Below are positions 4,250 through 54,763 of a DNA stretch of 64,000 nt, in pieces. Under the pieces are notes generated by a model. The model was not told where the DNA came from and ran no database searches. It saw only the letters and a list, made by a program, of their open reading frames with translations. The translations under genes and the position numbers were made by a program. The stretch comes from a virus, in IMG/VR virus record IMGVR_UViG_3300029796_000300; one strand, given 5' to 3'. The first letter of the stretch is position 1, and each line of letters opens with the position of its first letter.

Positions 4250-4998
4250 TTATGAGATTTGAGAATCGGCGTTCTTCACATAGTCTTTCACTTTCTTCTG
4301 AAGCTGGTTGACCTTGCAAATCACGTTCTCCTCGTCGTCGATATCCTCGTAACTGCTGTCACAGCCGTCTACCACATTACCGTTTGCGGCAATGTAGAGC
4401 GTATCGAAGGCAATGCTGTTGTACTCTGTGGAGTAATCCGTTACCAGCTCGTCCATGTCGGTCCTGAGCACCTCCGGTGCTCTTACGCCGATGCCGTTCT
4501 TGTTGGCACGTCCGGTATTTAACAGCCAATTCAAATCGTCATCCTTGACCGAATGCTGTTTACCCTGGCCGAAGAAGGACAAGCCGCTCAGAATTTTCGC
4601 GTTGTCATTGTCGCGGAACGCCTCGTGGAACATATCCACAGAGACATCGACCTCGCACATATCCTGCTCTTCCATCTTAGCATACGATTCCAGCAGCGTC
4701 AGCGCGAGGTCGCGCATCTGCTCCTTCGACGTCGCTCCGTTGGTGGCGACATAGAAAGCAGCCGGCATCGTGTCATAACGCTCCGCAAGCTCAAAGTACC
4801 GCTTGATGGCCGGAACATTCAAAGACGGCTCGCCGCCCGTGAAAATGACGGAAGCAGGGTGGATATGCTTAGCGATGCCCGACAGAACTGCTGTTGAGAT
4901 GTCAAGATTTTGCGCATCTCCGCGCAGGCAGTGGTTGCATTTCATGTTGCAGCGACGAGTGACCTCAATGGCGAGGTAATTTACATAAATCTCCATTT
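4250..4998 (-). CDS. radical SAM domain protein (CNMKCNHC = CxxxCxxC; TGGEP motif), small single-cluster type
   Basis: Cys triad 13 aa from N-terminus; ATG at 4996-4998 downstream of leader copy 2 with AAAGGAGAAATG RBS. Confidence 0.8.
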
Positions 4999-5036
4999 TC
5001 ATTTCTCCTTTTTTGTGATGGTTATGTGATATATAA

Positions 5037-5176
5037 AAGCCAGCACCCACGCGGGCGCTGACTGAACTTTCTCTTTTGTTTGTGATACTTCTTTGGTATG
5101 GTCTCAGCATACCGGCGGAAGTGGAAATTGCCGCATTCACCTTCCAAGAACCTGAGAACTGGAGAACCGGAGAACT
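5037..5176 (-). promoter_or_regulatory. conserved leader element (type B) copy 2; hairpin GCCAGCACCC-ACGC-GGGCGCTGAC (compensatory changes); GAACC/GAACT x4 at 8-bp period
   Basis: Alignment with other copies. Confidence 0.6.
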
Positions 5177-7484: not shown

Positions 7485-8183
7485 TCAGTCACGCCAGTAT
7501 GCGCCGTCTTTCGCTTCGCCCTTCGGGAAAACGGTATACTCTGTTCCGTGCAGCACGATGTACTCATGGTTCAGAACATTGACAGAATCTCCAACGTCAA
7601 TGGTCTGAATGTTGAATACCTGCTTTGTGTCCAGACAGACGTCTGCCTTTGTCGCCGCAATGCAATTTCCGCCGTCCCAAACGGAGACATAAGGGATGTT
7701 GCGAACGATGGAAGGCTCTTCCTCAGTGCTCTGCTCAGCTTTCTCCAGAGCTGCCCGTACCTCGCCAATCTGCCAAGAAGGCATCAACGGGAATCCGGCT
7801 CTCGTATAGAGACCGCCGCCCGCCTCCGCCTTCTCCAAGGCGGCCTTTGCGGCGTCCTCGGATGCGAAGATGGTGTACTGGCTGACCTCGATACCGGGCA
7901 AGTAGGAAAACGTCTTCGTTTTACCATCAGAGCATTCGACTTCGGTCATTCCCGAATAGGCAACGCCCGTCCAGCCAAACCAACCGGGTTCCACAAATTC
8001 GGAGAAGGTCACAGTAGACACCGTTACTTTTACGACCGCCAACTCTCTCGTGGACGGACGATACAGCCGACCGTATTTGTTGACTTTCTGCTTAAAGGTG
8101 ATTGCGTACACCTCGGAGCCAATGCCGATGGGAACGCCGTCAGCAGTCTTGCACGCTGGTAAGAGATATGCCTTGTTCTTCAT
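7485..8183 (-). CDS. hypothetical protein
   Basis: 232-aa ORF, first gene after leader copy 3. Confidence 0.6.
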   Translation of the reverse strand: MKNKAYLLPACKTADGVPIGIGSEVYAITFKQKVNKYGRLYRPSTRELAVVKVTVSTVTFSEFVEPGWFGWTGVAYSGMTEVECSDGKTKTFSYLPGIEVSQYTIFASEDAAKAALEKAEAGGGLYTRAGFPLMPSWQIGEVRAALEKAEQSTEEEPSIVRNIPYVSVWDGGNCIAATKADVCLDTKQVFNIQTIDVGDSVNVLNHEYIVLHGTEYTVFPKGEAKDGAYWRD

Positions 8184-8217
8184 TTTTTTCGTTTCTCCTT
8201 TTTGTTTATGAAATTTT

Positions 8218-8359
8218 TATATATAAAAGCCAGCATCCGCAACGGACGCTGACTGAACTTTCTTTGTGTTTGAGATACTTCTTTTGTATGATTTCAGCAT
8301 ACCGGCAGAAGAGAAAAAATCACCTATTTCCTGATGGAGAACCTAAGAATATGAGAACT
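8218..8359 (-). promoter_or_regulatory. conserved leader element (type B) copy 3; hairpin GCCAGCATCC-GCAAC-GGACGCTGAC
   Basis: Alignment with other copies; GAACC/GAATA/GAACT at 8-bp period. Confidence 0.6.
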
Positions 8360-9861: not shown

Positions 9862-10227
9862 TCAAGCTGCCATCTGGTACAGCCATGCTTCAAAGTCTTC
9901 ATAGTCCATCAGCCGTCCATCCACCTCGACGAATCCAGGCTGCGTTGTGCCGCGAACAACGGAAAAGGAATCTCCGCCGCCACAGAAAACGCGAATGTTC
10001 GTTCTGGAGATGCTCTCGCAGCGCAAGAAATACGAGCCGAGGCGTTCCCAAATTCGGGACATCTCCTCGTCGGTCGCTTCCCAACTGCGGTTTTGGCTGG
10101 TACGGACCTTTGTTGCGGATACGGACAACTCAACCTGCTCCGTATCTTCCGGCAGCCCAAGCTCCGCGCAGACCTCTTTCCACTTTGTTTCGTCGCTGAA
10201 ATCCCACTTAAACAGCATTGCTTCCAT
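9862..10227 (-). CDS. hypothetical protein (MEAMLFKWDF...)
   Basis: Internal Met with AAAAAGGAGAAATAAAC RBS; first gene after leader copy 4. Confidence 0.55.
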   Translation of the reverse strand: MEAMLFKWDFSDETKWKEVCAELGLPEDTEQVELSVSATKVRTSQNRSWEATDEEMSRIWERLGSYFLRCESISRTNIRVFCGGGDSFSVVRGTTQPGFVEVDGRLMDYEDFEAWLYQMAA

Positions 10228-10257
10228 GTTTATTTCTCCTTTTTCGTGTTTTTTTGA

Positions 10258-10398
10258 TATATAAAAAGCCAGCGGCATGATAAAACCGCTGACTGAACTT
10301 TCTTTGTGTATGTGATACTTCCTTTGTATGCTCTGAGCATACCGGCAAATATGGAAACACGCCTATTTTAATGTTGGGAACCTGAGAACCGAAGAATA
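10258..10398 (-). promoter_or_regulatory. conserved leader element (type B) copy 4; hairpin stem CAGCGG / CCGCTG with 10-nt loop
   Basis: Alignment; GAACC GAACC GAATA at 8-bp period. Confidence 0.6.
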
Positions 10399-10500: not shown

Positions 10501-11622
10501 TCATTCAAGAAAGTCCTGAAGCATCTTCCCTGCCTTTCCGTTGCGTAGCTTATCGAGTGTTTTATCTGTAACCTGACGGACACGCTCTCGCGTTAAGTCC
10601 ATTTCGTCCCCGATTTCTTTGAGGGTATAAGCACAACCATCCTCCAATCCGAATCGTAAGCGAAGCACACAGGCGTCTCGTGCGGGCATATCGTGCAGGA
10701 TTTTGTCCATCGTTTCCCATAGTGCCTTCCCTGACGTTGAAATTTCCGGGTTATCCCACTCGTTATGGCTTGGGATGAATTCCGAAAGCGGTGTGTTGGA
10801 ATCGCTTGCGGCGTCCGAATTGACGGGCGCATCCAACGAGTCCGGCTTCCGGTACTGGAGCGAGTGTTGGATGATGCGCAGTTTTTTCTGCTGCTCCCTT
10901 TTTGAAAGGGAATCCCACGCATCCCCCTCCATGTATTTTGCGATTTCTAAAGGGTCATCACAAGGTAAGCCTTTTTGTTGCATTTGTTCTTTTGCATTAT
11001 TGACGCTCCGCCTGCCCTCCGCAACATAGATGGGCTTGCGAATGGCTGGGTCCGTCGTGGCAAGCGCTCTTGTGATGTTTTGCCTTATCCAGAAGGTTGC
11101 GTAGGTGGAAAACTTCACATTCCTCGAAATGTCAAAAGAGTCGATGGAACGCATGAGGCCAATGTTGCCCTCCTGAATGAGGTCCATGAACACCATAGAA
11201 TCGGCTGAGTTTATATATTTCTTTGCGATGGACACAACAAGCCGAAGATTGCCCTCAACAACCTTATCTTTCGCCCGTCTTCCTGCTTCTATGGCCTTCA
11301 TCAGGTCTTTCTTGATTTCGGGGTCAACTGCATTCCCGCTCTCCTCGGCAATTACCCGCAGCGTTTCGAGCTGTTCGGCAGCGGCATTCCCCTTCTGCAC
11401 TTTTTCAATGCAGCGATTCGCTTCCACCTGCGGCATAATGGGAATGCTGCCAATTTGGCTGAGATACATCGCCACATGGTCGCCGATATTTCCCGGCTGC
11501 TTCGCTTCGGTCTCCTGTTCATTCGAAGCTGTGATTTCTTCTGTTTCAGGCTGCCTTTCAATGGCTTCATAGGCAAGCGCACGGTCAGCGGCTAAATTAC
11601 TGGTATTCGTGATGTCAACCAC
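10501..11622 (-). CDS. RNA polymerase sigma-70 family sigma factor (regions 1.2-4; housekeeping-like paralog carried on element); start codon uncertain (GTG at 11622 or ATG at 11472)
   Basis: Region 2 motif LIQEGNIGLMRSIDSFD...FSTYATFWIRQ; region 4 HTH LKEIGDEMDLTRERVRQV. Confidence 0.8.
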   Translation of the reverse strand: MVDITNTSNLAADRALAYEAIERQPETEEITASNEQETEAKQPGNIGDHVAMYLSQIGSIPIMPQVEANRCIEKVQKGNAAAEQLETLRVIAEESGNAVDPEIKKDLMKAIEAGRRAKDKVVEGNLRLVVSIAKKYINSADSMVFMDLIQEGNIGLMRSIDSFDISRNVKFSTYATFWIRQNITRALATTDPAIRKPIYVAEGRRSVNNAKEQMQQKGLPCDDPLEIAKYMEGDAWDSLSKREQQKKLRIIQHSLQYRKPDSLDAPVNSDAASDSNTPLSEFIPSHNEWDNPEISTSGKALWETMDKILHDMPARDACVLRLRFGLEDGCAYTLKEIGDEMDLTRERVRQVTDKTLDKLRNGKAGKMLQDFLE

Positions 11623-11641: not shown

Positions 11642-11670
11642 CAATTATACCACACAATAGCTTACTTGTC
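11642..11670 (-). promoter_or_regulatory. consensus sigma-A type promoter TTGACA-N17-TATAAT with TGTGG extended -10 (type A family)
   Basis: rc reads TTGACAAGTAAGCTATTGTGTGGTATAAT. Confidence 0.6.
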
Positions 11671-11720
11671 AATCAAAAGGCCGCCAGCGATGTGCTGACA
11701 GCCTTCCAGGATGGGAGAGA

Positions 11721-12229: not shown

Positions 12230-12757
12230 TTACACCTCCGAAATTTCGATTCCGTACTTTTCCAACATGAGTTTGCGTTTCATAAGATACTTTTCGGTTC
12301 GTTTTCCCTTCGCGTCTTCCACGATGCGTTTACCGTTGCGAAGGTATACGAAATCTGCCTTATAGACCATTGGGCGAACCCGCTTGCCATTTGGCCGTGT
12401 ATAGCCCTCGACCAGCGTGAAGTCCTGCTGGAGCCGCAGGTCCTGGATTGCACCGCCCTTGTACTGCAAATACAGTTCATCGAAGCGCCGTGCCTCCCGC
12501 TTGCTGGGGAATTTCACGGTTTCTCCATCCACCACGCGAATGACCTTTACATTGCGATATTTGGATGGCTCAGCAGCGTCCGCTTCTTTCGGCTGTTTTT
12601 GCCTTTTCTGTGCTTCCGGCTGTTTTTTTGCTTGCTGCTGTTTCTGTTCGCGCTTCTGCTCGTCGAGCTTTGCACGCACCTGAATCTGTGCGGAAAGCGG
12701 CAGGCTATTGATGTCAATACCCACCTTCAGTTCCTCCGCCTGTTTGTGGCGCGGCAT
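12230..12757 (-). CDS. DUF1064-like phage protein (KYRNVKV...YKADFVY...IVEDAKG motifs), basic/Q-rich N-terminus
   Basis: Motif resemblance to DUF1064 family. Confidence 0.6.
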   Translation of the reverse strand: MPRHKQAEELKVGIDINSLPLSAQIQVRAKLDEQKREQKQQQAKKQPEAQKRQKQPKEADAAEPSKYRNVKVIRVVDGETVKFPSKREARRFDELYLQYKGGAIQDLRLQQDFTLVEGYTRPNGKRVRPMVYKADFVYLRNGKRIVEDAKGKRTEKYLMKRKLMLEKYGIEISEV

Positions 12758-13116
12758 TTTGGCTGCTTCCTTCTCGCAGCAGAATCAAATTCATGACCTT
12801 CCATACCGTCCAGATACACAGATGGCGAACTATGCTTCTGCTGGTGCCGTGCAGGTCGGCGATTTGCGAAAACGTCATTCTGTCACGAAAATACTTTTGG
12901 ACGATATCGCGGTTTCGCTCAGGAAGTGTGTCCAGCGCTTCATCGAACATCTCGTTAAAGCCCGGTGTAAATGAAATTTGATTCTTACCCCAGGCTGAAA
13001 TTTGATTCTTACACCAGGCAAAGGATGTATCGTACATAATGGCCGCCTTCCGCCACTCCTCCGGGGCAAACTCAGGCTGGTTAATCTTGTCTGTCGTTTG
13101 TTTCTTTGTCATTTTT
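12714..13116 (-). CDS. small sigma region-4-like HTH DNA-binding protein; contains in-frame tandem repeat (AWCKNQIS AWGKNQIS)
   Basis: RNRDIVQKYFRDRMTFSQIADLHGTSRSIV resembles sigma-70 region 4. Confidence 0.5.
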
Positions 13117-13357
13117 GTTTTTCCTTTCTCCGTCGCTGCAAAAACTATTTGGAAATGTCCGATGCTGCGGCATGAGAGATGTACCACCGCAAACCCAACC
13201 GTCTGATTGCGAAAATACACAGCCCTCACATCGCACCACCGGCACGGCATCCACAGTGGGGGCTTTTTCGAGCAAGCCAAGTAAGCCGTTCCAACCAGCA
13301 CAATACGCCGCAGGGAGAACATCTTTGCTGCACCGCCCCACGCCCAATTTATCAATA

Positions 13358-14614
13358 TCAACCAGATTCATGGTCAGCACCTCCGTCCATCTTGGCCCCG
13401 CAATCCTCGCAGTATTTTTTGGTAGGCTTGTCCCAACTGCCCTCAGTGGTAATGACAAAGCCGCACGCAGGGCAACACCACTCGTCCCCGCCAAGATGCG
13501 CCCAGCTGGTGTGCATTACCGGGGCCACGTCAGTGGTGAGAAAATCTCTTCGTGAGCTGCGCCACAGCATGAGCAGCATCTCGCTGACCGGTCTGGTTCG
13601 GTCCTTCCTCACGGCTTTCCTCACGCATCGCAGATGCCCGCCGTCCGGGCAAAGCACACCGACGCCGTATGGCACAGTATCCTTCACCGCTTCGAAGACG
13701 TCTGCGGGCATAACGTAGTAGTTGTAGTCCGCGATGAAGTTGTGCCCGTTAGGAGATTTGAAATCCTCCACAGAGGACTTGACCTCGTAGGCGTAGAAGT
13801 CCCCCTTCTCAATGCCGGAGGTCGAATTGTTGAGCGGCTGAAAGCGCATATAGTCCACGCGGATTTTGTGGTTCGTAGAGTAGTCGAATGTGACCTCTCT
13901 CGCCCAGTAGATGCGTGGGTCGTTGCGCGGGTCGATGTATCGCTCCAGCATGGCAGAGAGCTGGCGAGTGTGTTCCTTCCGGGTGAAGGCATCACTCGTT
14001 TCCGGACAGAATTGAGCTGGCTTTCCAAGGATGAAATGGAACGGCAGAGCCTTTTCCAGTACGTCGATAATATTCTGAAGGGTCCCCTGCCCGCATTGGC
14101 GCAGATTCTTCAGTTTGCCGCTCTCTATCAGTCGAACAACATCGCCGATACTTTGGGCACCACTGAACATAAGGCAGTTCTTGGTGCGAGTCGAGAAATT
14201 GAGGCACTGAAACGGAACAGAATCGCACAACTCCTCGATTTTTTTCCAGTTGCCATTCTCAATGGCCTCCTTCAAAGTAGAGGCGAGAGGGCTGCCTGCA
14301 AACCGGCGCATTTCTTTCAGGATACCCCCCGCATATTTGGGGTGACGCAGCCTCCTTATGGCGAGGTCGAAGCAAGAGTAGAACTTGCCGATGTCAATTT
14401 CCAGTGCGTTTGCGCATTGTGTTGGTGTAAGACCGTCGCGGTAGCGTTTTAAGATAGCTTCCCGCTCCAACTCAGGGAATGTGGCGATGGCAGCGTCTAC
14501 AGCTGCGTCGAAAGAGTCAGAGAACTCAGCACACGGCATACACAAGCAATCCTGCATCAAATTCTTTCGCCATTCTACTGACGAGCGAAGCAGGAAACGC
14601 TCCTCAGTGTTCAT
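13358..14614 (-). CDS. multidomain protein: N-terminal sigma region-4-like HTH, RpoA alpha-CTD-like HhH segment, C-terminal PD-(D/E)xK-like nuclease motif, C-terminal Cys4 ribbon
   Basis: EREAILKRYRDGLTPTQCANALEI; LNFSTRTKNCLMFSGAQSIGDVVRL; GDFYAYEVKSS; CPACG...CEDCG. Confidence 0.6.
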   Translation of the reverse strand: MNTEERFLLRSSVEWRKNLMQDCLCMPCAEFSDSFDAAVDAAIATFPELEREAILKRYRDGLTPTQCANALEIDIGKFYSCFDLAIRRLRHPKYAGGILKEMRRFAGSPLASTLKEAIENGNWKKIEELCDSVPFQCLNFSTRTKNCLMFSGAQSIGDVVRLIESGKLKNLRQCGQGTLQNIIDVLEKALPFHFILGKPAQFCPETSDAFTRKEHTRQLSAMLERYIDPRNDPRIYWAREVTFDYSTNHKIRVDYMRFQPLNNSTSGIEKGDFYAYEVKSSVEDFKSPNGHNFIADYNYYVMPADVFEAVKDTVPYGVGVLCPDGGHLRCVRKAVRKDRTRPVSEMLLMLWRSSRRDFLTTDVAPVMHTSWAHLGGDEWCCPACGFVITTEGSWDKPTKKYCEDCGAKMDGGADHESG

Positions 14615-15380: not shown

Positions 15381-15408
15381 TTGACAAAGCGGCTTGCTGG
15401 TGTATAAT
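15381..15408 (+). promoter_or_regulatory. plus-strand sigma-A-like promoter TTGACA-N16-TATAAT driving a short antisense RNA
   Basis: cTTGACAaagcggcttgctggtgTATAAT. Confidence 0.45.
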
Positions 15409-15586: not shown

Positions 15587-15722
15587 CACCTCCCTCCACA
15601 GGGAAGTGCCGACCGCCTACCGTATATGGTAACGCCTTTCTGGCTCCTTTTGGAGCATTGTTATCTTACCAAAAAGGCCCCGCTTTGTCAATTTCCACCG
15701 CCCACGGTTTATCCGCAGGTGG

Positions 15723-17117
15723 TTATTTTTTTGCCTCGGCTGCTGCATGGGGAAGCCGCACCCAGCCGCCCTTATGACGAACAAGCTGGATTTTCTTCAT
15801 GCTGACCATAAGCGGCTTTCCATCCGTGAGTAGGCTTAATGCCCTGCCATAGCTGGAGCAGCCCTTGGAAACGTATTTGCGATTGCCGTAGACCACGATA
15901 TCTCCCGGCTGCATGGCATATCTCTGCTTTCTGGTCGAGGTTCGGCCCTTTGACTTCTTACAGCCACGGAACCGGCGCAGATTTTCGCCGTCAAGGTTAT
16001 GATTGCGGTTCGTCCTGCCGGAGGACAGCTCGTTGCCAGAACGGATAACTCCCTTTTCCCGTGTGTCGTAATATTTGGCGTCATAGAATTTGGATAGGAC
16101 TCTGTTGTTTCGCCTGTATTTCTGGAAGACCTCTGTTTCGCATCTGGCTTCCGGACGCAGCTCGCCCATGCAGTAGGCATCCGTAGCGCAGGAATACGGG
16201 AGGCCGAGGTTGGTGCGGACGCGCTTGGAGATGACGCCATAGGTCATGTGTACTTCCGCAACACCCTGGAAGCGAGCCATCGCACGCTGATAGAGAATCC
16301 AGCGCACGCTATTCATAAACGCTTCGCCGGTATATTTCCGCAGAGGCTTATCGAAGCCCCACAGCTTCCCGCCCTCCTTGTGATTGGCAGGTGTGTTGCA
16401 CTTCTCGCAGCAGGTCGCAAGCTCCCTCATGCTGTTCCCATGCAGACCTTTCCAGTAGTAGGCGTGATGGACATGAAGGATAGCGCCGTCTTTCAGGCCT
16501 CTCTTGCAATACACACAGGTATAGTGGTCCCGTTCAAAGACCGCTTCCCGCAGCGTATCGTAGCCGTACTGCGGTCCATGCTGATAGTCCTTGCCCTGCG
16601 GGACAGGTTCCCCTGCCTCCAGCGCCGCAAGGAGCTGTGTATCGTATGTCGCGGCCTTGATAAAGACATCCGTGACAGGCATGACAGACAGATAACGGGA
16701 GATAATATCCAGGTGCCGCTCCACCTTGTTGTCCAGAGACGGAGCAATCCAACCGGGCTTTTTGCCTGATACACGGTTATTGAACCGTGCAGCCCGATAC
16801 CGCAGGCGGTTTCTGCGCGTCCGGCGGTACGCTCGGCAGTCGTCATGGCGAGAGCGCTCGTTCGTGAGCATATCATATTGCTGCGATACGACCTCTTTTG
16901 CCTTTGTCTTAATGCTGACGCCGATATGCTCATATCCGGTGCCGACGCACATTTCGATGGGCTGGGTATAGGTACTGGTATCGTAGGTCAGCTGGATGGT
17001 GAACGGGTTCCGCTTCGCAATCACAGCGCGGCCATCCTTCAACAGATGGCGCACTTTGCCGTAATTTTCGGTCGGCATCAGCCGTTCACCGTTTGCACTT
17101 AAAACACATACTGGCAT
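15723..17117 (-). CDS. IscB-family protein (PLMP, bridge helix, HNH zinc finger present) with RuvC catalytic residues substituted (RuvC-I D->T, RuvC-II E->K, RuvC-III H->C) relative to the canonical copy at 29896..31188
   Basis: Pairwise alignment by eye: ILGVDAGSKTIG vs EMCVGTGYEHIG; VVVETAEFD vs VFIKAATYD; HTNDALAIA vs SCATDAYCM; HNH HVHH kept, N->E. Confidence 0.8.
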   Translation of the reverse strand: MPVCVLSANGERLMPTENYGKVRHLLKDGRAVIAKRNPFTIQLTYDTSTYTQPIEMCVGTGYEHIGVSIKTKAKEVVSQQYDMLTNERSRHDDCRAYRRTRRNRLRYRAARFNNRVSGKKPGWIAPSLDNKVERHLDIISRYLSVMPVTDVFIKAATYDTQLLAALEAGEPVPQGKDYQHGPQYGYDTLREAVFERDHYTCVYCKRGLKDGAILHVHHAYYWKGLHGNSMRELATCCEKCNTPANHKEGGKLWGFDKPLRKYTGEAFMNSVRWILYQRAMARFQGVAEVHMTYGVISKRVRTNLGLPYSCATDAYCMGELRPEARCETEVFQKYRRNNRVLSKFYDAKYYDTREKGVIRSGNELSSGRTNRNHNLDGENLRRFRGCKKSKGRTSTRKQRYAMQPGDIVVYGNRKYVSKGCSSYGRALSLLTDGKPLMVSMKKIQLVRHKGGWVRLPHAAAEAKK

Positions 17118-17640
17118 CTTATTTTTTCCTTTCACGCTGCGGGTGCAGTTTCCTGTCATTCGATGGGGGACGTCAACTGCGTGATGCTCCGTTTGCGGGG
17201 GGCTGCGGTATAGCTACCTGTCATTTGGTGGGGGACGTCAACCTGTCAATCCGGATTGCAATTTAATCGTACGGTATAGCTCCCTGTCATTTGGTGGGGG
17301 ACGTCAACTGAAGTTGAGTTTGCCGAGTATATTCCAAACGACAAACCAAAAAGGTAAATCAGCACTTACCGCTCACGCGGCGTTACTGTGGTCCACATCG
17401 CCAAGGATATACCGGGTTTGATGGTACGCACACTTCTCCTTCCCCTCAGAGATGTTTAATACGCACCCGCAGAGCGGCGGACTTGTGGAGTATCCGCCGG
17501 TGCCTATGTATTCCGGCATATCGTAGTCTTGCGGCTGAGGCTTATTGACGAGGCTTACTCTCCTTGCGGGTCATAAGCCACACCAAATGACAGGAGGCTG
17601 AGCCGGAGTTTCCGGCGCACCCGCCCGCCATTCGGCGGGG
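17118..17640 (-). ncRNA. putative IscB omega-RNA region upstream of iscB-like gene (shares conserved core with region 31189-31470)
   Basis: Structured, non-coding, homologous motif ...ctcagag.tgtttaa...ccgcagag...ccgccggtgcctat... shared with second IscB locus. Confidence 0.45.
17139..17313. repeat. three direct copies of 26-bp unit CCTGTCATTTGGTGGGGGACGTCAAC at ~70-bp period; unit is complementary to CACCAAATGACAGG at 17586-17599
   Basis: Direct reading of sequence. Confidence 0.75.
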
Positions 17641-18699: not shown

Positions 18700-19010
18700 A
18701 GAAAACCAAAGATTTGGTAAATCAGCACTTACCGCTCACGCGGCGTTACTGTGGTCCACATCGCCAAGGATATACCGGGTTTGATGGTACGCACACTTCT
18801 CCTTCCCCTCAGAGATGTTTAATACGCACCCGCAGAGCAGCGGACTTGTGGAGCATCCACCGGTGCCTATGGATTCCGGCATATCGTAGCCTTGCGGCTG
18901 AGGCTTATTGACGAGGCTTACTCCCCTTGCGGGTCATAAGCCACACCAAATGACAGGAGGCTGGGTCGGAGTTTCCGGCGCACCCGCCCGCCATTCGGCG
19001 GGAGTGCAGA
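18700..19010 (-). ncRNA. orphan near-identical duplicate (~300 bp, a few SNPs) of the omega-RNA-like segment 17341-17640, not adjacent to any iscB
   Basis: Near-identity over ~300 bp incl. CACCAAATGACAGGAGGCTG at 18946. Confidence 0.45.
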
Positions 19011-19384: not shown

Positions 19385-21385
19385 TCAGTCTCCTTTCCCC
19401 GCCGCCAGCAGGCGCGGCACAAACTCAGATACTTCCAGTTTTTCTTGGTACATCTTCCGGCAGGTGATGATTTCCAGCTCATGCCGTGCCCGCGTCGCTC
19501 CGACGTAGAACGCTCGCGCATCCTCTTCGTCATCCTCCGCGTCGCGGTCATCGCTGTCACCGGGAATGATGCCAGATACCATGTCGATTAAGATGACCTT
19601 ATCGAACTCCAGACCTTTACTGGAATGGATGGTGGTAACGGTCACATTGGAATCCTCGCAGCCCTTATATTCCGTGATGTTTTTGAGTGCGGCAAGAAAG
19701 TCCGGAATGGTCGAATACTTCTCCGCTACCATCTTCAAAATGCTGATACGCAGGCGGATAAACTGCTCGGAAGCACCGGCGTCAATTTTCTTCGTCAGCC
19801 AGTTGCTCCAATAGTCGAGCATGAACAGAATGTAGTCGATAGCCTCAGCAGGCTTCTTCTTCGCAAGGTCGGAAAAGTCCCTCGGCAGGCATTCTATTTT
19901 CCATGCGTATCCCTTGCCGCCTGCAAATTTCATCGCGGCGCTGAATACGTTCCGGCACTCCCCTTCTTCAACCGCCTCGATAATGCGCTTGGCGGTGACG
20001 CCCTTCATGTAAAGGCCCATTTTGTAGTACAGATGCCCAAAAGCGGTGGTGTCAGCAGGGTTCAGGGCCAGAAGCATAAAGTCGAGCAGGTCCCGAATGA
20101 CGTAGTTCGTCATGAAGGTCCCCGTCGCATCTCTGGTTTGAACCTGAATGCCGTTCATCTGGAGCAGATTGATAAGAGGGATGGCAGAGTCGTTATTCCG
20201 ATACAGAATTGCCAGGGATTCATCCGGCTTCTGATTCCGGATGCGCTCCAGCAGAAGCTCCGCCTGCTGTTCCATGCGGTCGATGCAGGTCACGACGATG
20301 GCTCCGTCCTTTTGGGACTGGGCACGCATATTCTTGTCGAGTCGTCTCGTATTCAGTTTGATGAACTGATTGGCCGCTGAGACGATGTTCCTGTCGCTGC
20401 GGTAATTGGTCTCCATACGCAGGATACAGGGTTCGTTATAGTTGCTCTGGAAGTCCAGCAGTGCGGCAGGATACGCGCCTCGGAAGCCGTAGATGCTCTG
20501 GTCTTCGTCTCCGACCATGAAGATATTGCCATTCCGCCCAACCAGCTTCTGGACGATAAGGTGCTGGACATACGAGGTGTCCTGCGCCTCGTCCACACTC
20601 ACATAGCGGAACTTCTCATGCGCCCGCTGTAAGATGTCCTGGTATTCATCCAGCAAATCATTTGCCATGAGAAGCTGGTCATCAAAATCCATTAAATCAT
20701 GCTCGCTCATGTAGAGCTTGTACGCCTGGTAAAAAGCAGAAAAATCAAGGCTGTTTTCTTCGATGGCCTCAATTTCCTGAAAGGTCATGAGCTTGTTTTT
20801 TACTTTGCACACCTTCTGCGCGAGAGACCGCACCTGTGAATCACTGGGATACTCCGGAAGCATCTTAGCCGCAATAGCACGGACGATGCTCTCGTTGTTC
20901 GGCACCAGCTTTGGTACATGAATGTACTTCTCTTTCGCACAGGTATTGATGACGGACAGGCAGAAGCTGTTGATAGTGGAGAATACCGGTATCCGTTCCG
21001 GGGCAAACTTCTTTATGAAACGCTCCTTCATTTCCTTTGCCGCAGCGCGGGTATAAGTGATGGTCAGGATATTCTCCGGCTTTACGCCTGCGACATACAT
21101 GAGATAGCCGGTTCTCGCTACGATGACCGTAGTTTTTCCGCTTCCCGGCACAGCAAGGAGCAGCGTTGCTCCATTCACGCGCCGGACAGCGGCTTCCTGC
21201 TGTTCGTTGAGTCCGCAAATATTGAATTTTTGGCAAAAAGTGTGGTAATCCAATGCAGCGCACCCCCGAACTTTTATATTTACATTATACCACACATTAG
21301 CTTGATTGTCAATTCGTTTCAGAAAAGCTAAGCGCCCCAAGACAAGGAGCGCTTGGCTTGCTGGCTGACGTCTACTGCTTCTCAA
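19385..21385 (-). CDS. UvrD/PcrA/Rep-family SF1 DNA helicase (N-terminal extent uncertain)
   Basis: Motif I AVPGSGKTTV, motif II FRYVSVDEAQDTSY, motif III MVGDEDQSIYGFRGA, motif V/VI TVTTIHSSKGLEFD. Confidence 0.8.
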   Translation of the reverse strand: MRSSRRQPASQALLVLGRLAFLKRIDNQANVWYNVNIKVRGCAALDYHTFCQKFNICGLNEQQEAAVRRVNGATLLLAVPGSGKTTVIVARTGYLMYVAGVKPENILTITYTRAAAKEMKERFIKKFAPERIPVFSTINSFCLSVINTCAKEKYIHVPKLVPNNESIVRAIAAKMLPEYPSDSQVRSLAQKVCKVKNKLMTFQEIEAIEENSLDFSAFYQAYKLYMSEHDLMDFDDQLLMANDLLDEYQDILQRAHEKFRYVSVDEAQDTSYVQHLIVQKLVGRNGNIFMVGDEDQSIYGFRGAYPAALLDFQSNYNEPCILRMETNYRSDRNIVSAANQFIKLNTRRLDKNMRAQSQKDGAIVVTCIDRMEQQAELLLERIRNQKPDESLAILYRNNDSAIPLINLLQMNGIQVQTRDATGTFMTNYVIRDLLDFMLLALNPADTTAFGHLYYKMGLYMKGVTAKRIIEAVEEGECRNVFSAAMKFAGGKGYAWKIECLPRDFSDLAKKKPAEAIDYILFMLDYWSNWLTKKIDAGASEQFIRLRISILKMVAEKYSTIPDFLAALKNITEYKGCEDSNVTVTTIHSSKGLEFDKVILIDMVSGIIPGDSDDRDAEDDEEDARAFYVGATRARHELEIITCRKMYQEKLEVSEFVPRLLAAGKGD
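21283..21311 (-). promoter_or_regulatory. consensus promoter TTGACA-N17-TATAAT with TGTGG extended -10 (type A)
   Basis: rc: TTGACAATCAAGCTAATGTGTGGTATAAT. Confidence 0.6.
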
Positions 21386-25911: not shown

Positions 25912-25957
25912 GAAATCACCGCCTTTCATACTTGATTATACCATATTTTCGTGGTTT

Positions 25958-26266
25958 TCAACAAAAATTGCACTTTCGGTGCAATTTGGAGTGCCTTATA
26001 TCCCCATGCCTAAAGGCAGGGGTTTTACGGCGAACCCCGATAATATACGCCGCAAGAAGTGCCATAGAATCATTCAGAAAAAAGTGAAAGTCTGAAAGTA
26101 AATCCCACGCGAAGGCCGATGCAACGCACAAAATCGTGGCCGCGACAATACAGCAAAGCGCAAATGCAGCTGATTCGAGTGCGCTGGCGTTTGTCATGTC
26201 CGTATCTGTATCGTCATCAAGCCCCTGCCGCATAAGCCAAAGGGACATGATAATCGGAAAGTTCAA
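25958..26266 (-). pseudogene. small membrane protein gene whose 3' end runs into the IS left end (likely disrupted/fused by insertion)
   Basis: Hydrophobic ORF reading through IS terminal hairpins. Confidence 0.3.
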
Positions 26267-26286: not shown

Positions 26287-26967
26287 CTATGGAAGCTCCC
26301 AGTGAATTGGTGTGCTTCCCATCTGTTCCAACAATCTGTTAGTTTGAGAAAAAGGTCTGCTGCCGATGAATGCTTTTACTACATCGTTTCCTTTTCGTGC
26401 TCCAAGGGGGCTTGGATGACTTGAAAATACCACACCCTTATTAGGCAGTTGTGAAATTGGAATTCCGGCAAGAAAAGCTCTCGCCTGTCCGCCCCATGTG
26501 ATGAACACAATCGGCTGCGGCAGCTTCGCACACGCCGCGAATACCGCCTGCGTGAAGTTCTGCCACCCCCAGTTTTTATGGCTGTTTGCGGTCCCATCCT
26601 GTACTGTAAGTACGGTATTGAGCATGAGCACGCCTTGTTCCGCCCAGTGAGTCAGGTCTCCACTTTTCGGATACGGACAACCAATGTCACTGACCAGTTC
26701 CTTGAAGACGTTTTTGAGCGACGGTGGAAAAAGCACACCACGGTTTACTGAAAAGCACAGCCCGTTCGCCTGCCCCGCCTCGTGATATGGGTCTTGCCCG
26801 ACAAGGCATACCTTCACCTTCTCCGGCGTGGTAAGCTCCAACGCACGGAATATCTGCTCCTGCGGCGGGTATATTGTGCGACCCGCTTCGCGCTCACAGG
26901 CAGCCCGCTTGGCAAGCTCAGCTCCAAGCGCCTGTACATCCTGTGGGATTACATCGCTCCACATCAC
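26287..26967 (-). CDS. ung: uracil-DNA glycosylase (family 1 UNG)
   Basis: GQDPYHEAGQANGLCFSV and HPSPLGARKG motifs. Confidence 0.85.
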   Translation of the reverse strand: MMWSDVIPQDVQALGAELAKRAACEREAGRTIYPPQEQIFRALELTTPEKVKVCLVGQDPYHEAGQANGLCFSVNRGVLFPPSLKNVFKELVSDIGCPYPKSGDLTHWAEQGVLMLNTVLTVQDGTANSHKNWGWQNFTQAVFAACAKLPQPIVFITWGGQARAFLAGIPISQLPNKGVVFSSHPSPLGARKGNDVVKAFIGSRPFSQTNRLLEQMGSTPIHWELP

Positions 26968-27002: not shown

Positions 27003-27031
27003 ATTATACCACACATTAGCTTAAAAGTCAA
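27003..27031 (-). promoter_or_regulatory. type A promoter TTGACT-N17-TATAAT with TGTGG extended -10
   Basis: rc: TTGACTTTTAAGCTAATGTGTGGTATAAT. Confidence 0.6.
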
Positions 27032-27064: not shown

Positions 27065-27604
27065 TCACGCGAAGTACCACTCCCCATTGCTGAATTCAAC
27101 GAACTCTTCCTCGGCGGCGAAATGCACCTCCAAAAAAAGCTCTCCTTCGCCATTATCTACGACCACCACATCGTAGTCGTCGTCTCCATAGTAGGAGATG
27201 ATATCGTGATGCTTATTCGCTTTCTCGTCGATGATGCACATATCGCGCGGCACCTTGTAGAGCAACGCTCCATCCTTCCGCCGCGTACAGCACGCGGCAT
27301 CGTAGAAAAGGAAAGTCTCTCTGTTGTCTTCGTCGGCGTTTTTGAATTCCCTAATACCGTTCTTTTCTTTCTCCGCAAGTTCGTTAAGCAAAGCTACGAC
27401 CTTCAGCGTTTTTACATTCAACATAGAGTTCCTCCTCAGTAATTCGTACAGCATCCCATAGAGATACTCCGGCGGGCTGCATTTCTCCTGCTCCCAGTTT
27501 CGGACTGTTCCCAGAGGAATTCCGGTGGTAAGGGCAAATTCACGCTGGGACAGCTTAAAATCCTGACGCTGCTTTCGGATGCGGTTCTGCTCGTGTTCAA
27601 TCAT
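27065..27604 (-). CDS. XRE-family HTH transcriptional regulator with C-terminal domain of unknown function
   Basis: LSQREFALTTGIPLGTVRNWEQEK HTH; AAGGGTGG RBS before second Met. Confidence 0.6.
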   Translation of the reverse strand: MIEHEQNRIRKQRQDFKLSQREFALTTGIPLGTVRNWEQEKCSPPEYLYGMLYELLRRNSMLNVKTLKVVALLNELAEKEKNGIREFKNADEDNRETFLFYDAACCTRRKDGALLYKVPRDMCIIDEKANKHHDIISYYGDDDYDVVVVDNGEGELFLEVHFAAEEEFVEFSNGEWYFA

Positions 27605-27777
27605 ACTTATTTCAACCACCCTTAATAATTCGTAGTGCGCAATCTAAGTATTTTTCAATATAGCACCGGCATTCTGGCTTGTCAAGCGCAATATCCAAAA
27701 TGTGTAAAAAATCACTCCCCCGTTGTCGAGGGAGTGATGTGTTCTGTTTGGAAGGGTCTGCCGCAGTCAGCTATGTA

Positions 27778-29271
27778 TTATTCAGCCTTGCCGTCCGCGT
27801 CATTCTTGGCAGGCGGTTCCTGCGGCTGTGTGGGAGCTGCCGTATTGTCCGGCTTGTCCATGACGATGACAGGAGAGGTCTGCTGGGCCGTGAGCTTGCC
27901 GCCGATGGCTCCGGCAATAAGAGACTTAATATCCAACCCCATTCCGGAAGAAAGGCCCTCTGTGACCTGTGTGGTGCCGTTGATGATGTCACCCAGCAGC
28001 TTCGCGCTGTTGCCTTCGCCGTACATCGTGATTTTATCCACCTTGCTGAGAGGTTCAGCGACATTCTTGGCGATTTCCGGCAAAGCGTTCATAATCATCT
28101 CAACGATGGCCGCGTCGCCGTATTTCTTCATAGCTTCTGCCTTCTTGTCGATACCTTCTGCTTCAGCAACGGCCTTGGCACGAATGACATTGGCTTCCGC
28201 CTCACCGACGGCAGCAATACCAGCAGCTTCCTGCTCGCGGGCGTACTTTACGGCGTCGGCTTCCGCTCTCTTTGCATCCGCCTCACGTTGGCGCTCGAAA
28301 AGCTGCGCCTCCGCGTCCTTCTGACGTCGGTAGAGGTCGGCATCCGCCTGTGCGCGGACCTCCGCATCCAGAGACTGCTTCTTAACTTCGACCTCTTTGT
28401 TTTTCAGCTCCGCTTCGCGTTCCGCCTTGGCGATTTGCGCATTGACGGTAGCCGTCTCAATGGAGCGCTGCTGTTCCTGCTGCTGGATGGTATACGCGGC
28501 ATCGGCCTCGGCCTTCTTCGTATCCTCCTGAACCTTGAGTTCAGCTTTGCGGATGGAGAGGTCATTCAGCTTCTGAGCGATTTGCATTTCGGACTCGACT
28601 TTGGCATCGTTAGACGCCTTGGCCGCCTGCGCCTGAGCGATAGCCACGTCACGCTCCGCCTCAGCTTTGGCGATGGCAGCATCCTTCTGGATTTTGCTCA
28701 TATTGTCCTGACCGAGGGAGTTGATTAAGCTGTTTTCGTCCGTGACACGCTGGATATTGCAGGAGATGATTTCGATACCGAGCGCACTCATATCTGTCTG
28801 TGCTTTTGACTGTACCTCGTCACCGAATTTCTTTCGGTCATTGCAGATTTCCTTGAGAGAGATGGTGCCGATGATTTCGCGCATATTGCCCTGGAGAGAA
28901 TCCGCGATGGCGCAGCTGAAATCCGCTTCTCGCATATTCAGAAAGTTCTTCATGGCGAGCTGGATGCCTTCCGGGTCCGTCTTGACTCTGACCTTGGCAA
29001 CCGCGTCCACATCGACGCCGATGAAGTCGTTGGTCGGGATATAGCCTTCCGACTTGATGTCGATGGAGATTTGCCGGACAATGAGCTTATCTACACGCTC
29101 CAGAAACGGAATTCGGATACCCGCTCGCCCAATCAGAACGCGGGGCCTTTTTCGTATACCGGAAATGATGTAGGCCACATCGGGCGGAGCCTTTACATAG
29201 CCAAGAAGAAAGATAATCACCACAAGGGCCACTACTGCAATTACAGGCAGCAGCTTCACGAGATTTTCCAT
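27778..29271 (-). CDS. flotillin / SPFH (band 7) family membrane protein (FloT/YqiK-like) with Ala/Glu/Lys-rich coiled region
   Basis: N-terminal TM, SPFH core, long AEAERDVAIAQAQA... repeats. Confidence 0.8.
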   Translation of the reverse strand: MENLVKLLPVIAVVALVVIIFLLGYVKAPPDVAYIISGIRKRPRVLIGRAGIRIPFLERVDKLIVRQISIDIKSEGYIPTNDFIGVDVDAVAKVRVKTDPEGIQLAMKNFLNMREADFSCAIADSLQGNMREIIGTISLKEICNDRKKFGDEVQSKAQTDMSALGIEIISCNIQRVTDENSLINSLGQDNMSKIQKDAAIAKAEAERDVAIAQAQAAKASNDAKVESEMQIAQKLNDLSIRKAELKVQEDTKKAEADAAYTIQQQEQQRSIETATVNAQIAKAEREAELKNKEVEVKKQSLDAEVRAQADADLYRRQKDAEAQLFERQREADAKRAEADAVKYAREQEAAGIAAVGEAEANVIRAKAVAEAEGIDKKAEAMKKYGDAAIVEMIMNALPEIAKNVAEPLSKVDKITMYGEGNSAKLLGDIINGTTQVTEGLSSGMGLDIKSLIAGAIGGKLTAQQTSPVIVMDKPDNTAAPTQPQEPPAKNDADGKAE

Positions 29272-29304: not shown

Positions 29305-29333
29305 ATTATACCACATAACACCTCACGAGTCAA
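29305..29333 (-). promoter_or_regulatory. type A promoter TTGACT-N17-TATAAT with TGTGG
   Basis: rc: TTGACTCGTGAGGTGTTATGTGGTATAAT. Confidence 0.55.
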
Positions 29334-29895: not shown

Positions 29896-31188
29896 CTATG
29901 CAACCAAATAACTTTGGCTGCGTTCCAATAGTTTTAAGTGTTTGTAGCTCACGCCGTCTTTGACCTTTTCTCCGTTGAGCTGCCGCAGCAGGAAGGAGCC
30001 GCTGGTGCGTCTCCCCCAGACAAAGCACTCGATACCGTTGTAGAGCACCTTGTCGTAGAGGCGGAAGCCGCAGATGTACTTCTCTGCCTGATTGGCCTTC
30101 CGCACACCGCCCTTCAGGATGGTCGCCTTGTGCAGCTGACGGTTGTGATGTCTCACAGGGCAGATGGTGTAAAGTTGGTCCGCCTGACGGATATTTGGCA
30201 GGTATTCTGCGCGAAAGCCCTGCGGGCCGTGCGCGATTGCCAGCGCGTCGTTGGTATGGCTCTTCGGCAGCACCAGCAGATTCTCCCGCGTAGCCTTGGT
30301 GATGTAGCCCCTGGTCTCCACAACGGGGACAGGAAGCTGCTCCCGCAGCCTCCGCAGCAGCGTCATGCGCATGATGCCCATGAAGGTTGCGTCGCGGGTG
30401 GAGCGGCGCTTGCGCTTCTTGATGTCCGCTGCCATGATAATGCCCTTGTGGAGCTTATCGTGACAGGCGGTACAGAGCGTTACCAGATTGTCCGGAGCGT
30501 CACCGCCTACCCTGCGGCTCTCAAGATGATGCACATGGAGCGGGACGCCCTTCCTGACGGAGCCATGCACCCCGCAGATGCGGCAGGTATAGCTGTCGCG
30601 CCACAGGACGTACTGGCGCACGTTGTAGTGGCCGTACATCTCGCCCTTCTGGTAGTCCTCGCCCTGCGGAACAGGCTTCCCTTCCGCAACGGCCTTGAGG
30701 AGCTGCAAGTCGAACTCGGCGGTCTCTACAACCACCTTGCTGACAGGCAGGATGGCGCAGGCACGCCGGATGGCGGTCATGTGCTCCTGAATCTTGACCT
30801 CCACGGAGGGCGCAAGCCAGCCTTTGTGCTTGCTCCGCACGCGATTGTCGAAGCGTGGCTTGCGATACCGGGTGGTACGATTGCGCCGCGCACGGCGGAA
30901 TTGCCTGCGTGCGGACATCAGCTCGACTACATCGTTGCGCGGCTTGACCTCTGCGGAGAACAGTTCCTCCGTTTCGGTGGCAGCTGAAAGACCAATGGTT
31001 TTGCTGCCGGCGTCCACACCGAGGATGACCTCCTGCGTATAGCCGGTACTGCCGTAGAGCAGCTGAATGGTAAATGGTGTTCTGTGTCTCACTTTTGCCT
31101 TGCCCGCATCCAGAAGATGACGGGCCTTCGCCGGTGTGCAGGGCATCAGCGGACGCCCGTGCCGATTGAGAACATAGACCTTTGGCAT
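29896..31188 (-). CDS. iscB: IscB (OMEGA RNA-guided nuclease; PLMP, RuvC-I/II/III, bridge helix, HNH all intact)
   Basis: RPLMPCTP; ILGVDAGSKTIG; RRARRNRTTRYRKPRFDNR; VVVETAEFD; CRICG...HVHH...DNLVTLCTACHDKLH; HTNDALAIA. Confidence 0.85.
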   Translation of the reverse strand: MPKVYVLNRHGRPLMPCTPAKARHLLDAGKAKVRHRTPFTIQLLYGSTGYTQEVILGVDAGSKTIGLSAATETEELFSAEVKPRNDVVELMSARRQFRRARRNRTTRYRKPRFDNRVRSKHKGWLAPSVEVKIQEHMTAIRRACAILPVSKVVVETAEFDLQLLKAVAEGKPVPQGEDYQKGEMYGHYNVRQYVLWRDSYTCRICGVHGSVRKGVPLHVHHLESRRVGGDAPDNLVTLCTACHDKLHKGIIMAADIKKRKRRSTRDATFMGIMRMTLLRRLREQLPVPVVETRGYITKATRENLLVLPKSHTNDALAIAHGPQGFRAEYLPNIRQADQLYTICPVRHHNRQLHKATILKGGVRKANQAEKYICGFRLYDKVLYNGIECFVWGRRTSGSFLLRQLNGEKVKDGVSYKHLKLLERSQSYLVA

Positions 31189-31470
31189 ACGTTGATGCCT
31201 CCTTTCTTTGGGTGCGGCTAAAAATTAAGCCGCTCAGCCTTTCGGCTGTCAGGTATCCGTACCCAATGTTATCCCAGGGTTTTGTGTATGCAGCACTGCT
31301 CCTTACCCTCAGAGCTGTTTAACCACACACCGCAGAGTGGCAGATTCGGATTCACGTCCGCCGGTGCCTATCTATTCCTGGGTAACGTAGTGTTCGAAAC
31401 ACTTAGGGTAGTCAATCAGGCTCGTGGTTCGCACCACAAGCCCCCGGCTTTAGCCGTGGGGTTACATTGA
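31189..31470 (-). ncRNA. putative IscB omega-RNA immediately upstream of iscB
   Basis: Non-coding structured region homologous to 17400-17560 core; terminal hairpin CCCCCGGCTTTAGCCGTGGGG. Confidence 0.5.
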
Positions 31471-33204: not shown

Positions 33205-33240
33205 CCCCCAAAAAGCTATGTCTTCATTCTACCGTATATC
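33205..33240 (-). promoter_or_regulatory. sigma-A-like promoter TTGTCA-N17-TAGAAT upstream of NERD gene
   Basis: rc: TTGTCAGAAACCGAGATATACGGTAGAAT. Confidence 0.4.
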
Positions 33241-33287
33241 TCGGTTTCTGACAAGCTGACTTTTTGGCTTCGCAGCTTCGCATTCGC

Positions 33288-41643: not shown

Positions 41644-41719
41644 TGCTATTGCCTCCTTTGCGTTATTTTGGGCATCTTAATGCCCTACGCTTTTATTATT
41701 ACAACCTTTCATTCAAAAG

Positions 41720-42331
41720 TCAATTTTTTCGCGGATTTTCAAAAGTAAAAGACCTATGAACGGAATCCCGCTCATAGGCCTTCTTCTTGTTTTTCAATGA
41801 TAACCCGATGATAGTGAGTACATAGGACGACTCGATGTCCGTTCTCGGAATCAATCCGACAATGGAGCTGCGGCTGTCAAGGCTGTTGTTTCGATTATCC
41901 CCCAGCACAAAGTAATAGTCCTCCTCCACGGTGAGAGGAAACGATATGCCATCGTCATATTCGATGTTGGTCGGGGTATTCGTGTACGGTTCACTCAGCG
42001 CGATTCCGTTGCGATAGACCACCCCCTGTTCGAAATCAATGTCGATGGTATCACCGGGGCAACCAATAATACGCTTAACGATATTTTCATCCAGACCGCT
42101 CGAATTGCAAACAACAATGCTCTCAAACTCCAGATTCGGCTTAATGTGATTTGTCAGAATCACACTATTGTCCGCAAGCGTCGGCACCATAGAAGGGCCG
42201 GACACCACAACAACATTGAACAGGATTCGGAACAAAAGAAGAGCGATAATAAGCCCCTCCATGGAACCCTTGAGCACTTCACGGCTCCATACAGTGCGGT
42301 TGGTGAGATTTTGTTCTTTCATTGGAATCAC
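41720..42331 (-). CDS. lepB: signal peptidase I (S26 family)
   Basis: SGPSMVPTL (Ser box) and GDNRNNSLDSR motifs. Confidence 0.8.
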   Translation of the reverse strand: MIPMKEQNLTNRTVWSREVLKGSMEGLIIALLLFRILFNVVVVSGPSMVPTLADNSVILTNHIKPNLEFESIVVCNSSGLDENIVKRIIGCPGDTIDIDFEQGVVYRNGIALSEPYTNTPTNIEYDDGISFPLTVEEDYYFVLGDNRNNSLDSRSSIVGLIPRTDIESSYVLTIIGLSLKNKKKAYERDSVHRSFTFENPRKN

Positions 42332-42348: not shown

Positions 42349-42377
42349 ATTATACCACACTTTATCTTATTTGTAAA
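42349..42377 (-). promoter_or_regulatory. type A promoter TTTACA-N17-TATAAT with TGTGG
   Basis: rc: TTTACAAATAAGATAAAGTGTGGTATAAT. Confidence 0.55.
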
Positions 42378-54727: not shown

Positions 54728-54763
54728 TTTTTCTGATTCTCCTTACTTGTTATTTTTTTGATT

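Follow-up and report, generated by a model that had tools for sequence, protein, structure and literature searches.

What reads a promoter whose conservation runs past its −35 and −10 hexamers, when the element that carries it also encodes a sigma factor? The question is raised by IMG/VR virus record IMGVR_UViG_3300029796_000300, a 64,000-nucleotide stretch of DNA (the window throughout) that, judged by its gene content, is a conjugative element of human-gut Oscillospiraceae with a type IV secretion system (T4SS). The window encodes a primary-like sigma-70 family protein and, spread along its backbone, a family of promoters that share a TGTGG block immediately before the −10 hexamer (type A promoters). 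An earlier reading of the sequence, here called the original prediction, took this extra conservation to imply either an operator overlapping the spacer or a preference by the element's own sigma factor. Our analysis favors another answer. The eight sites are likely to be strong Gram-positive promoters of the type read by a primary sigma (SigA/sigma-70), and the block that they share would be a contact for RNA polymerase.

The family is confirmed at the places listed in Table 1, far beyond chance. Exact TTGACW-N17-TATAAT occurs five times in the window, always on the minus strand (11644-11672, 21284-21312, 27003-27031, 29305-29333, and 62416-62444), against 0.01 in shuffled sequence. A search for ATGTGTGGTATAAT with up to two mismatches returns eight sites where 0.15 are expected, and the three members added by this pattern lie at 42349 and 51369 on the minus strand and at 62526-62555 on the plus strand. 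The family accounts for eight of the 14 TATAAT hexamers in the window, and every TGnTATAAT (8/8) reads TGGTATAAT; counts of looser patterns, such as TGN-TANNNT, drowned in noise. The original prediction spoke of about ten near-identical promoters and gave the form TTGAC(A/T)-N17-TATAAT for eight listed sites. The family itself is real, but its number is eight plus one weak variant at 41695, correctly picked out, with AATAAT as its −10. Likewise, the stated form holds for five of the eight and fails at 42349, 51369, and the plus-strand site, where hexamers or spacing depart from it.

That these sites are promoters, as had been proposed, is borne out by their consensus hexamers and by their placement. 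All eight are intergenic and oriented toward the downstream gene, and each is followed on the same strand by a Shine-Dalgarno sequence and a start codon 15-45 nt downstream. The common layout begins with A-rich sequence and TTGAC(A/T), continues with a 17-bp spacer whose last bases are T−17 G−16 T−15 G−14 G−13 (numbered relative to TATAAT at −12 to −7), and closes with TATAAT. A strong GC hairpin lies upstream of six of the eight sites. The hairpin directly upstream of the sigma promoter has a folding energy of −29 kcal/mol, and a terminator-like hairpin with a T-run precedes the site at 51369, which is predicted to be an extended −10 promoter with a poor −35. The promoters head the units of the backbone, namely those of the sigma factor, a UvrD-like helicase, a uracil-DNA glycosylase, a flotillin, two T4SS/pilin operons, and two genes of unknown function; the T4SS operon behind 42349 includes an S1-domain protein and a VirB4-like ATPase. 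The sigma gene does carry one of these promoters, as originally described. In 11 other copies of the element that promoter is unchanged or almost so, and autoregulation of the sigma gene through it is possible.

Conservation within the spacer is uneven. GTGG is present in all eight sites and TGTGG in seven, the site at 62416 having A at −17 where the other members have T, and the longer ATGTGTGG is exact in only four. The near-invariance claimed for the 3′ half of the spacer applies to the short block and not to the longer string. Farther upstream, three copies were said to share AAGCTAATGTGTGG; it is exact in two of them (21284 and 27003), but the third, the sigma promoter, reads AAGCTATTGTGTGG, one mismatch off. 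AAGCTA is common to three copies and is missing at 29305, 51369, 62416, and 62526. At 27003 and 42349, TAAG(C/A)nTAA(A/T)G is repeated on either side of the −10. Copies are alike over up to about 45 nt, the likeness ending at the promoter core, and a search of the eight aligned sites for a common dyad or inverted repeat found none.

Table 1. Promoters, leader modules, and genes of the window discussed in the text.
Feature	Position	Strand	Sequence or annotation
Primary-like sigma-70 family protein, 373 aa	10501-11622	−	Pfam Sigma70_r2, Sigma70_r4; regions 1.2-4
Type A promoter, sigma gene	11644-11672	−	TTGACA-AGTAAGCTATTGTGTGG-TATAAT; −10 ends 22 nt before GTG start at 11622
Type A promoter, UvrD-like helicase gene	21284-21312	−	TTGACA-ATCAAGCTAATGTGTGG-TATAAT; TTG start at 21253
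Type A promoter, uracil-DNA-glycosylase-family gene (26287-26967)	27003-27031	−	TTGACT-TTTAAGCTAATGTGTGG-TATAAT
Type A promoter, flotillin/SPFH gene (27778-29271)	29305-29333	−	TTGACT-CGTGAGGTGTTATGTGG-TATAAT
Type A promoter, signal peptidase gene and downstream T4SS operon	42349-42377	−	TTTACA-AATAAGATAAAGTGTGG-TATAAT
Degenerate type A member, TrbC/VirB2-like pilin operon	51369-51397	−	CTTAAA-N17 (ending ATGTGTGG)-TATAAG
Type A promoter, 462-aa gene of unknown function (61024-62412)	62416-62444	−	TTGACT-ATTAAACATTTGAGTGG-TATAAT
Divergent type A promoter, 297-aa gene (62564-63457)	62526-62555	+	TTGATT-N18 (ending ATGTGTGG)-TATAAT
Weak variant within T4SS operon	41695-41723	−	TTGACT-N17-AATAAT, without TRTGG
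Promoter of TnpB gene, IS200/IS605-type insertion	25935-25964	−	Poor −35; ATATGG-TATAAT (TRTGG and −10)
Type B leader modules	~960-1160, 4960-5160, 8150-8350, 10190-10390, 54690-54890, 59095-59295	−	~150 nt shared in each
VirD4-type coupling protein	42465-44741		Pfam
VirB4/TraG-like ATPase	36937-39429		Pfam
TrbC/VirB2-like and T4SS pilins	50198-51340		Pfam

The conserved block has a published counterpart. T−15 G−14 constitutes the extended −10 element. In Gram-positive promoters, the extended −10 consensus is −17TRTG−14 (PMC2613000); that paper cites Helmann 1995 and Voskuil and Chambliss 1998 and 2002 for the motif, and PMC6212719 names T−17G−16T−15G−14 the extended −10 motif. Because the block matches TRTGn, most of the conservation beyond the −35 and −10 would represent a known contact of RNA polymerase. 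Judged by this match, the TGTGG block is an ordinary −16/extended −10 element, recognized by regions 2.4 and 3.0 of sigma, and not the site of a regulator. The hexamers, the spacing of 17 ± 1 bp, the TRTG, and the placement before genes are all those of SigA-class promoters with TRTGn.

The block is also found well beyond the backbone of this element. An unrelated insertion sequence in the window, which lies outside the backbone and serves as an internal control, has ATATGG before TATAAT in the promoter of its TnpB gene; the original prediction had set this promoter apart as lacking the spacer block, and on that point it was mistaken. A host chromosome carries it too. In the dnaG-rpoD neighborhood of an Oscillospiraceae metagenome-assembled genome (locus L032), the promoters read TTGCAT-N17(..CTGTGG)-TAGAAT, TTGCAT-N17(..CTGTGC)-TATCAT, and TTGACA-N18(..CATGG)-TATTCT. 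Two other loci with a true RpoD (L033 and L034) come from other Firmicutes of 29% GC and are uninformative, leaving the 21 kb of L032 as the host control; in all three, dnaG lies directly upstream of rpoD. Among phages, we counted at least 143 exact TTGACW-N12-TGTGGTATAAT sites in at least 120 stretches. Two IMG/VR phage contigs (L056 and L082, 34% and 41% GC) each contain five exact TTGACA-N12-TGTGGTATAAT copies within 12-14 kb, which indicates that families of such a "super-consensus" promoter recur in mobile genomes; a tblastn search of the fetched phage stretches found no sigma homologue.

Finally, the same motif is present in four related elements (L027, L028, L030, and L031). These are contigs with sigmas 34-38% identical to that of the window, belonging to large one-directional elements with a UvrD-like helicase. 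All four carry TTGACT-N17-(A/G)TGG-TATAAT about 30 nt upstream of the sigma gene, and each 21-kb stretch holds three to five further TTGACT-N17-TGG-TAnAAT promoters. Their spacers are AT-rich and without AAGCTA, so the AAGCTA half of the spacer is specific to the lineage of the window. The related sigmas have His/Asp at positions 455/458 (numbering below), whereas the window sigma has Tyr/Glu. Since the promoter motif stays the same despite these differences, it does not track the reading head of the sigma, and this independence points to an invariant reader, which would be the host SigA. Taken together, these occurrences and the missing dyad speak against the inference that conservation beyond the hexamers requires an operator or a preference by the element's own sigma factor.

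Closer copies of the element add a view of selection within the lineage. Near-identical copies (L014-L023) show almost no variation besides one diverged allele of the uvrD intergenic region. In the copies that have it, this allele has different flanks but the same −35, AAG at −26 to −24, GTGTGG, and −10, and the stem of the upstream hairpin is kept as well, which supports purifying selection on the promoter core. Another copy (L001) is polymorphic within the AAGCTA block, where it reads GAGCTA.

The sigma factor itself resembles a primary sigma. We took regions 1.2, 2, 3, and 4, alignable to solved SigA/RpoD proteins, as the marks of a group 1 or group 2 sigma-70. The best solved relatives of the element protein are primary SigA proteins, such as that of Clostridioides difficile (7l7b, 2e-50 in phmmer). 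Residues 45-83 (region 1.2) and 112-373 align to the C. difficile SigA, and residues 24-373 align to actinobacterial SigA, both at E ~1e-50. The Pfam models for regions 3 and 1.2 stay below threshold on this protein. The predicted extent, regions 1.2 to 4 at 10501-11622, is upheld by the Pfam matches to regions 2 and 4 and by a SigA alignment that runs from region 1.2 to the C-terminus. The protein has just 45 residues ahead of region 1.2 and thus lacks region 1.1. For this reason, and because the gene sits among element genes behind its own promoter, we rejected the candidate reading that it is the group 1 sigma of a host.

We number the DNA-reading residues of this sigma as in Escherichia coli (433, 437, 440, 441, 455, and 458), a correspondence that we assume. 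The element protein keeps Q437, T440, and R441 (WIRQNITR), an acidic residue at 458 (YVAE), and the residues that read the −35 (TRERVRQ; R584, E585, and R588 in the E. coli protein). It changes W433 to F and H455 to Y, and TTDP replaces the otherwise invariant DQAR. The −14 base pair is touched by residues 455 and 458 (PMC2613000). At 458, housekeeping sigmas have an acidic residue and RpoS has a Lys that reads C−13 (PMC6719511). The acidic residue at 458, facing −14/−13, is thus a mark of housekeeping sigmas that the element sigma retains. With the −10 and −35 reading residues of a primary sigma in place, the element sigma should, despite a remodeled reading head for the extended −10, recognize the promoter class of the host SigA, and it probably also reads the family promoters.

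The clade to which this sigma belongs is isolated. In a library of 1.8 billion proteins represented at 50% identity, its neighbors are one sister cluster at 49%, a few clusters at 38-39%, and then generic RpoD. The element sigmas (that of the window, P0127, P0128, P0314, P0318, and P0123) share an insertion of ~15 aa in region 3 (G..W..L..K/R-rich), and among the true RpoDs examined the insertion was seen solely in P0320, the RpoD of the Oscillospiraceae genome at L032. The insertion common to the element sigmas and this host RpoD suggests that the clade was captured from the primary sigma of that Oscillospiraceae lineage.

Several observations weigh against reading the family as plain SigA promoters. 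Where regions 2.4 and 3.0 meet, the element sigma has diverged to an unusual degree, with FWIRQNITRALATTDPAIRKPIYVAEGRRS in place of the invariant stretch of true primary sigmas, and an altered or stricter extended −10 preference is possible. G−13 is invariant, in 8/8 sites here and in 16/17 TGnTATAAT across the element loci, which exceeds the textbook TRTGn. Near-consensus sites number 16 per 64 kb here and 1 per 21 kb in the single, small host control. The persistence of AAG at −26 to −24 in the diverged uvrD allele indicates that the upstream half of the spacer is possibly constrained. The sister element L024, whose sigma P0123 is 49% identical and altered at the positions equivalent to T440 and R441, has no type A promoter in its 9.8 kb; this is the outcome expected if sigma and promoters co-evolve, on a stretch too short to weigh heavily on promoter conservation. 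Finally, the start sites, the strength of the promoters, and their dependence on a sigma are all inferred from sequence. L024 also carries three type B modules (described below), and its sigma differs in region 4.2 too (TRECIRR).

Some of these points would find a natural place if the promoters were tuned to the element sigma, whose 2.4/3.0 head would demand the full GTGTGG-TATAAT and thereby define a semi-private, positively autoregulated regulon for which host SigA supplies only the first spark. The sigma is diverged exactly where it would face −18 to −12, GTGG is invariant with G always at −13, such a promoter precedes the sigma gene in four deep lineages, and L024 combines an altered −12-reading helix with the lack of the family in its 9.8 kb. 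We nevertheless consider such tuning unlikely. The same motif occurs in the host chromosome, in an unrelated insertion sequence, and in many phage stretches where no sigma was found; TRTGG is also used by lineages with other residues at 455 and 458; and the −10 and −35 reading residues are those of a primary sigma. A promoter that is perfect for SigA cannot, moreover, escape the SigA of the host.

Alternatively, the spacer could hold an operator for a repressor of the element, such as the helix-turn-helix protein of the HTH_3 family encoded at 27065-27619. Bound to AAGCTAATG and/or to the ATAAGCRTAAAG repeat that surrounds the −10, the repressor would keep the family silent until transfer is induced, in the manner of KorA/KorB on IncP-1 plasmids. 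Repression is usual for promoters this close to consensus on conjugative elements, as on RK2, pLS20, and ICEBs1, and the element does encode helix-turn-helix proteins. The AAGCTA of three copies, the repeat flanking the −10 at 27003 and 42349, and the AAG retained in the diverged uvrD allele could all be parts of such a site, but no dyad or repeat is common to the eight, AAGCTA is missing from four of them and from all related lineages, L001 varies inside the block, and polymerase contacts fully explain the invariant part. These gaps make a spacer operator improbable. That the family is not made of promoters at all, and is instead a short repeated element (a miniature inverted-repeat transposable element, a recombination site, or a transposon end) or a chance cluster, is scarcely credible. 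Copies alike over up to ~45 nt and the several IscB/TnpB insertion sequences in the element might invite the idea; the shuffles exclude chance, the likeness stops at the promoter core with polymerase contacts as its conserved positions, all copies are intergenic, gene-directed, and 15-45 nt before a Shine-Dalgarno sequence, and neither terminal repeats nor target duplications are visible.

We therefore return to primary-sigma promoters as the preferred reading and propose how they would act. When the element enters a new cell its own proteins are not yet present, so host SigA would have to read the promoters, and the SigA holoenzyme would fire the family, the promoter of the sigma gene included. 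Once made, the element sigma would read the same promoters, adding to or substituting for host SigA, and would act as a positive feed-forward component rather than defining a private regulon. The upstream hairpins would insulate most units from the unit upstream. AAGCTA (−26 to −21) and ATAAGCRTAAAG after the −10 are lineage-specific, and common descent of the promoter cassettes is their simplest cause.

A second class of repeated sequence accompanies the promoters. Six type B leader modules lie on the minus strand, marked by a GAAGTAT motif at 1095, 5092, 8282, 10322, 54824, and 59230. Each runs in the order AGGTTC, ~36 nt, GCCGGTATGCT, ~12 nt, (A/G)GAAGTATC, ~35 nt, a hairpin with a U-run and AUAUAU, and a ribosome-binding site. 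Of the 10 base pairs in the hairpin, 7 show compensatory changes (12 sequences from four lineages), and no Rfam family matches the leader, even at E = 1. In distant relatives the leader follows TTGACT-N17-TGGTAnnAT promoters. Type B may act as a terminator within the leader, to be overcome by antitermination. The two-class architecture of type A promoters and type B leaders is real; of the two-tier transcription program that the original prediction drew from it, the second class stands, and a division of the tiers by sigma factor is not shown by the data.

On a wider scale, we tentatively propose that conjugative elements of gut Oscillospiraceae (~65-230 kb) captured a primary sigma that is always kept behind a perfect SigA-type promoter. 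Host SigA would start the program, and the captured sigma, without region 1.1 and with its remodeled head, would amplify the GTGG-TATAAT promoters and may open the type B tier, so that the program travels between hosts. We regard this larger scheme, in all its parts, as doubtful.

Nearly all genes of the window lie on the minus strand. The VirD4-type coupling protein, the VirB4-like ATPase, and the pilins identify a conjugative element, and together with a CHAP/lysozyme hydrolase and a signal peptidase they agree with the earlier placement of the family on a mobile element. Further Pfam matches are to the UvrD-like helicase, the uracil-DNA glycosylase, the flotillin, and an ERF recombinase. 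Thousands of human-gut assemblies contain the sigma protein at ~99% identity, on contigs that range in length over 65-447 kb. Among GTDB species representatives there is one carrier, Oscillospiraceae bacterium CM18GR_63, within a 571-kb contig; the other GTDB matches to the sigma were rejected as ordinary rpoD genes of unrelated phyla. A megablast search of PLSDB with 21 kb of the element returned a 34-bp match and nothing else, and tblastn of the sigma against PLSDB and INPHARED gave no match above 40% identity, the matches being mostly to chromosomal rpoD. Full-text literature searches, in which not all journals were covered, found no description of the element, nor of a primary sigma encoded by any conjugative element in gut Clostridia.

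Other features of the window are recorded here for completeness. Two transcription-related genes lie just upstream of the sigma gene on the minus strand (12714-13361 and 13358-14614). One encodes a small sigma region-4-like protein, and the other a 418-aa protein with a region-4-like helix-turn-helix, a domain like the C-terminal domain of the RNA polymerase alpha subunit (alpha-CTD), a possible nuclease core, and a zinc ribbon. An alpha-CTD-like gene is also present in L027, and in other copies of the element unrelated short genes replace the gene for the 418-aa protein. Two IscB-like genes (RRXRR/HNH open reading frames at 15723-17159 and 29896-31188) and three Rfam matches to HEARO, the IscB ωRNA (17386-17549, 18749-18968, and 31248-31471, minus strand), were found. 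In other copies an IscB has inserted directly downstream of the sigma gene, a place at which the window has none, so the IscB elements are actively polymorphic within the element. Promoter-like sequences outside the family include a perfect TTGACA-N16-TATAAT at 15381-15408, on the plus strand and against the direction of nearly all genes, and three on the minus strand. These are TTGACA-N17-TAAGAT at 15663-15691, near the end of an IscB insertion and overlapping a 34-bp exact match to a Nostoc plasmid; TTGACA-N17-TATATT at 27657-27685 (with TG and no GG), before the HTH_3 gene; and TTGTCA-N17-TAGAAT (..TACGG) at 33226-33254, before a NERD-domain gene.

Comparison with known systems places the family close to the SigA promoters of Gram-positive bacteria with TRTGn, which have the same layout of a TTGACA-like −35, a 17-bp spacer, T−17 R−16 T−15 G−14 n, TATAAT, and A-rich sequence upstream. 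Here, by contrast, eight such promoters lie in 64 kb, and in both hexamers five of these are perfect or depart by one mismatch; G−13 is invariant, and all are on a single mobile element that encodes a SigA-like protein. Similarly, the families of strong early promoters that phages direct to the host sigma, as in L056 and L082, place several exact copies within 12-14 kb of one mobile genome. Those contigs are viral, and their fetched stretches yielded no sigma gene; the carrier here is conjugative, with a T4SS, and encodes a sigma itself.

The IncP-1 plasmid RK2 coordinately represses the near-consensus promoters of its conjugative backbone through the Kor regulon. It, too, has many strong housekeeping-class promoters heading backbone operons, but it uses palindromic KorA/KorB operators and has no sigma of its own, while here the host is Gram-positive and no shared operator was detected. 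Control of the Kor type was considered and set aside, as a shared palindrome or repeat is absent from the eight sites and AAGCTA is in three only. SigN of Bacillus subtilis is an alternative sigma factor with its own promoter consensus. Like the sigma described here, it is encoded by and acts on a large plasmid-like element, pBS32, and it controls its own gene (PMC10601692). The sigma of the window differs in being primary-like, with promoters that have the SigA consensus; a private regulon of the SigN type was likewise rejected, since the consensus is not distinct from that of SigA and is also found in host, insertion sequence, and phage promoters. Group 2 sigmas, which are primary-like and non-essential, offer a further parallel, as their DNA-reading residues in regions 2.4 and 4.2 are conserved and their specificity is expected to overlap that of the primary sigma. 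The element sigma departs from them in its location on a conjugative element, its lack of region 1.1, its diverged 2.4/3.0 junction, and the region-3 insertion that it has in common with the RpoD of L032.

In summary, a known kind of feature, the strong housekeeping promoter of Gram-positive bacteria, is found on a very common gut element of which we found no description. For Oscillospiraceae, where few genetic tools exist, the eight sites offer strong promoters ready for use, and their practical value is modest. The puzzle lies in the sigma factor: a conjugative element carries a look-alike of a primary sigma though its promoters already match the consensus of the host. If the element sigma adds nothing, the family is one of textbook strong promoters. 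If it does add host-independent or amplified transcription, the element would be a clean case of a mobile specificity factor of the housekeeping type.

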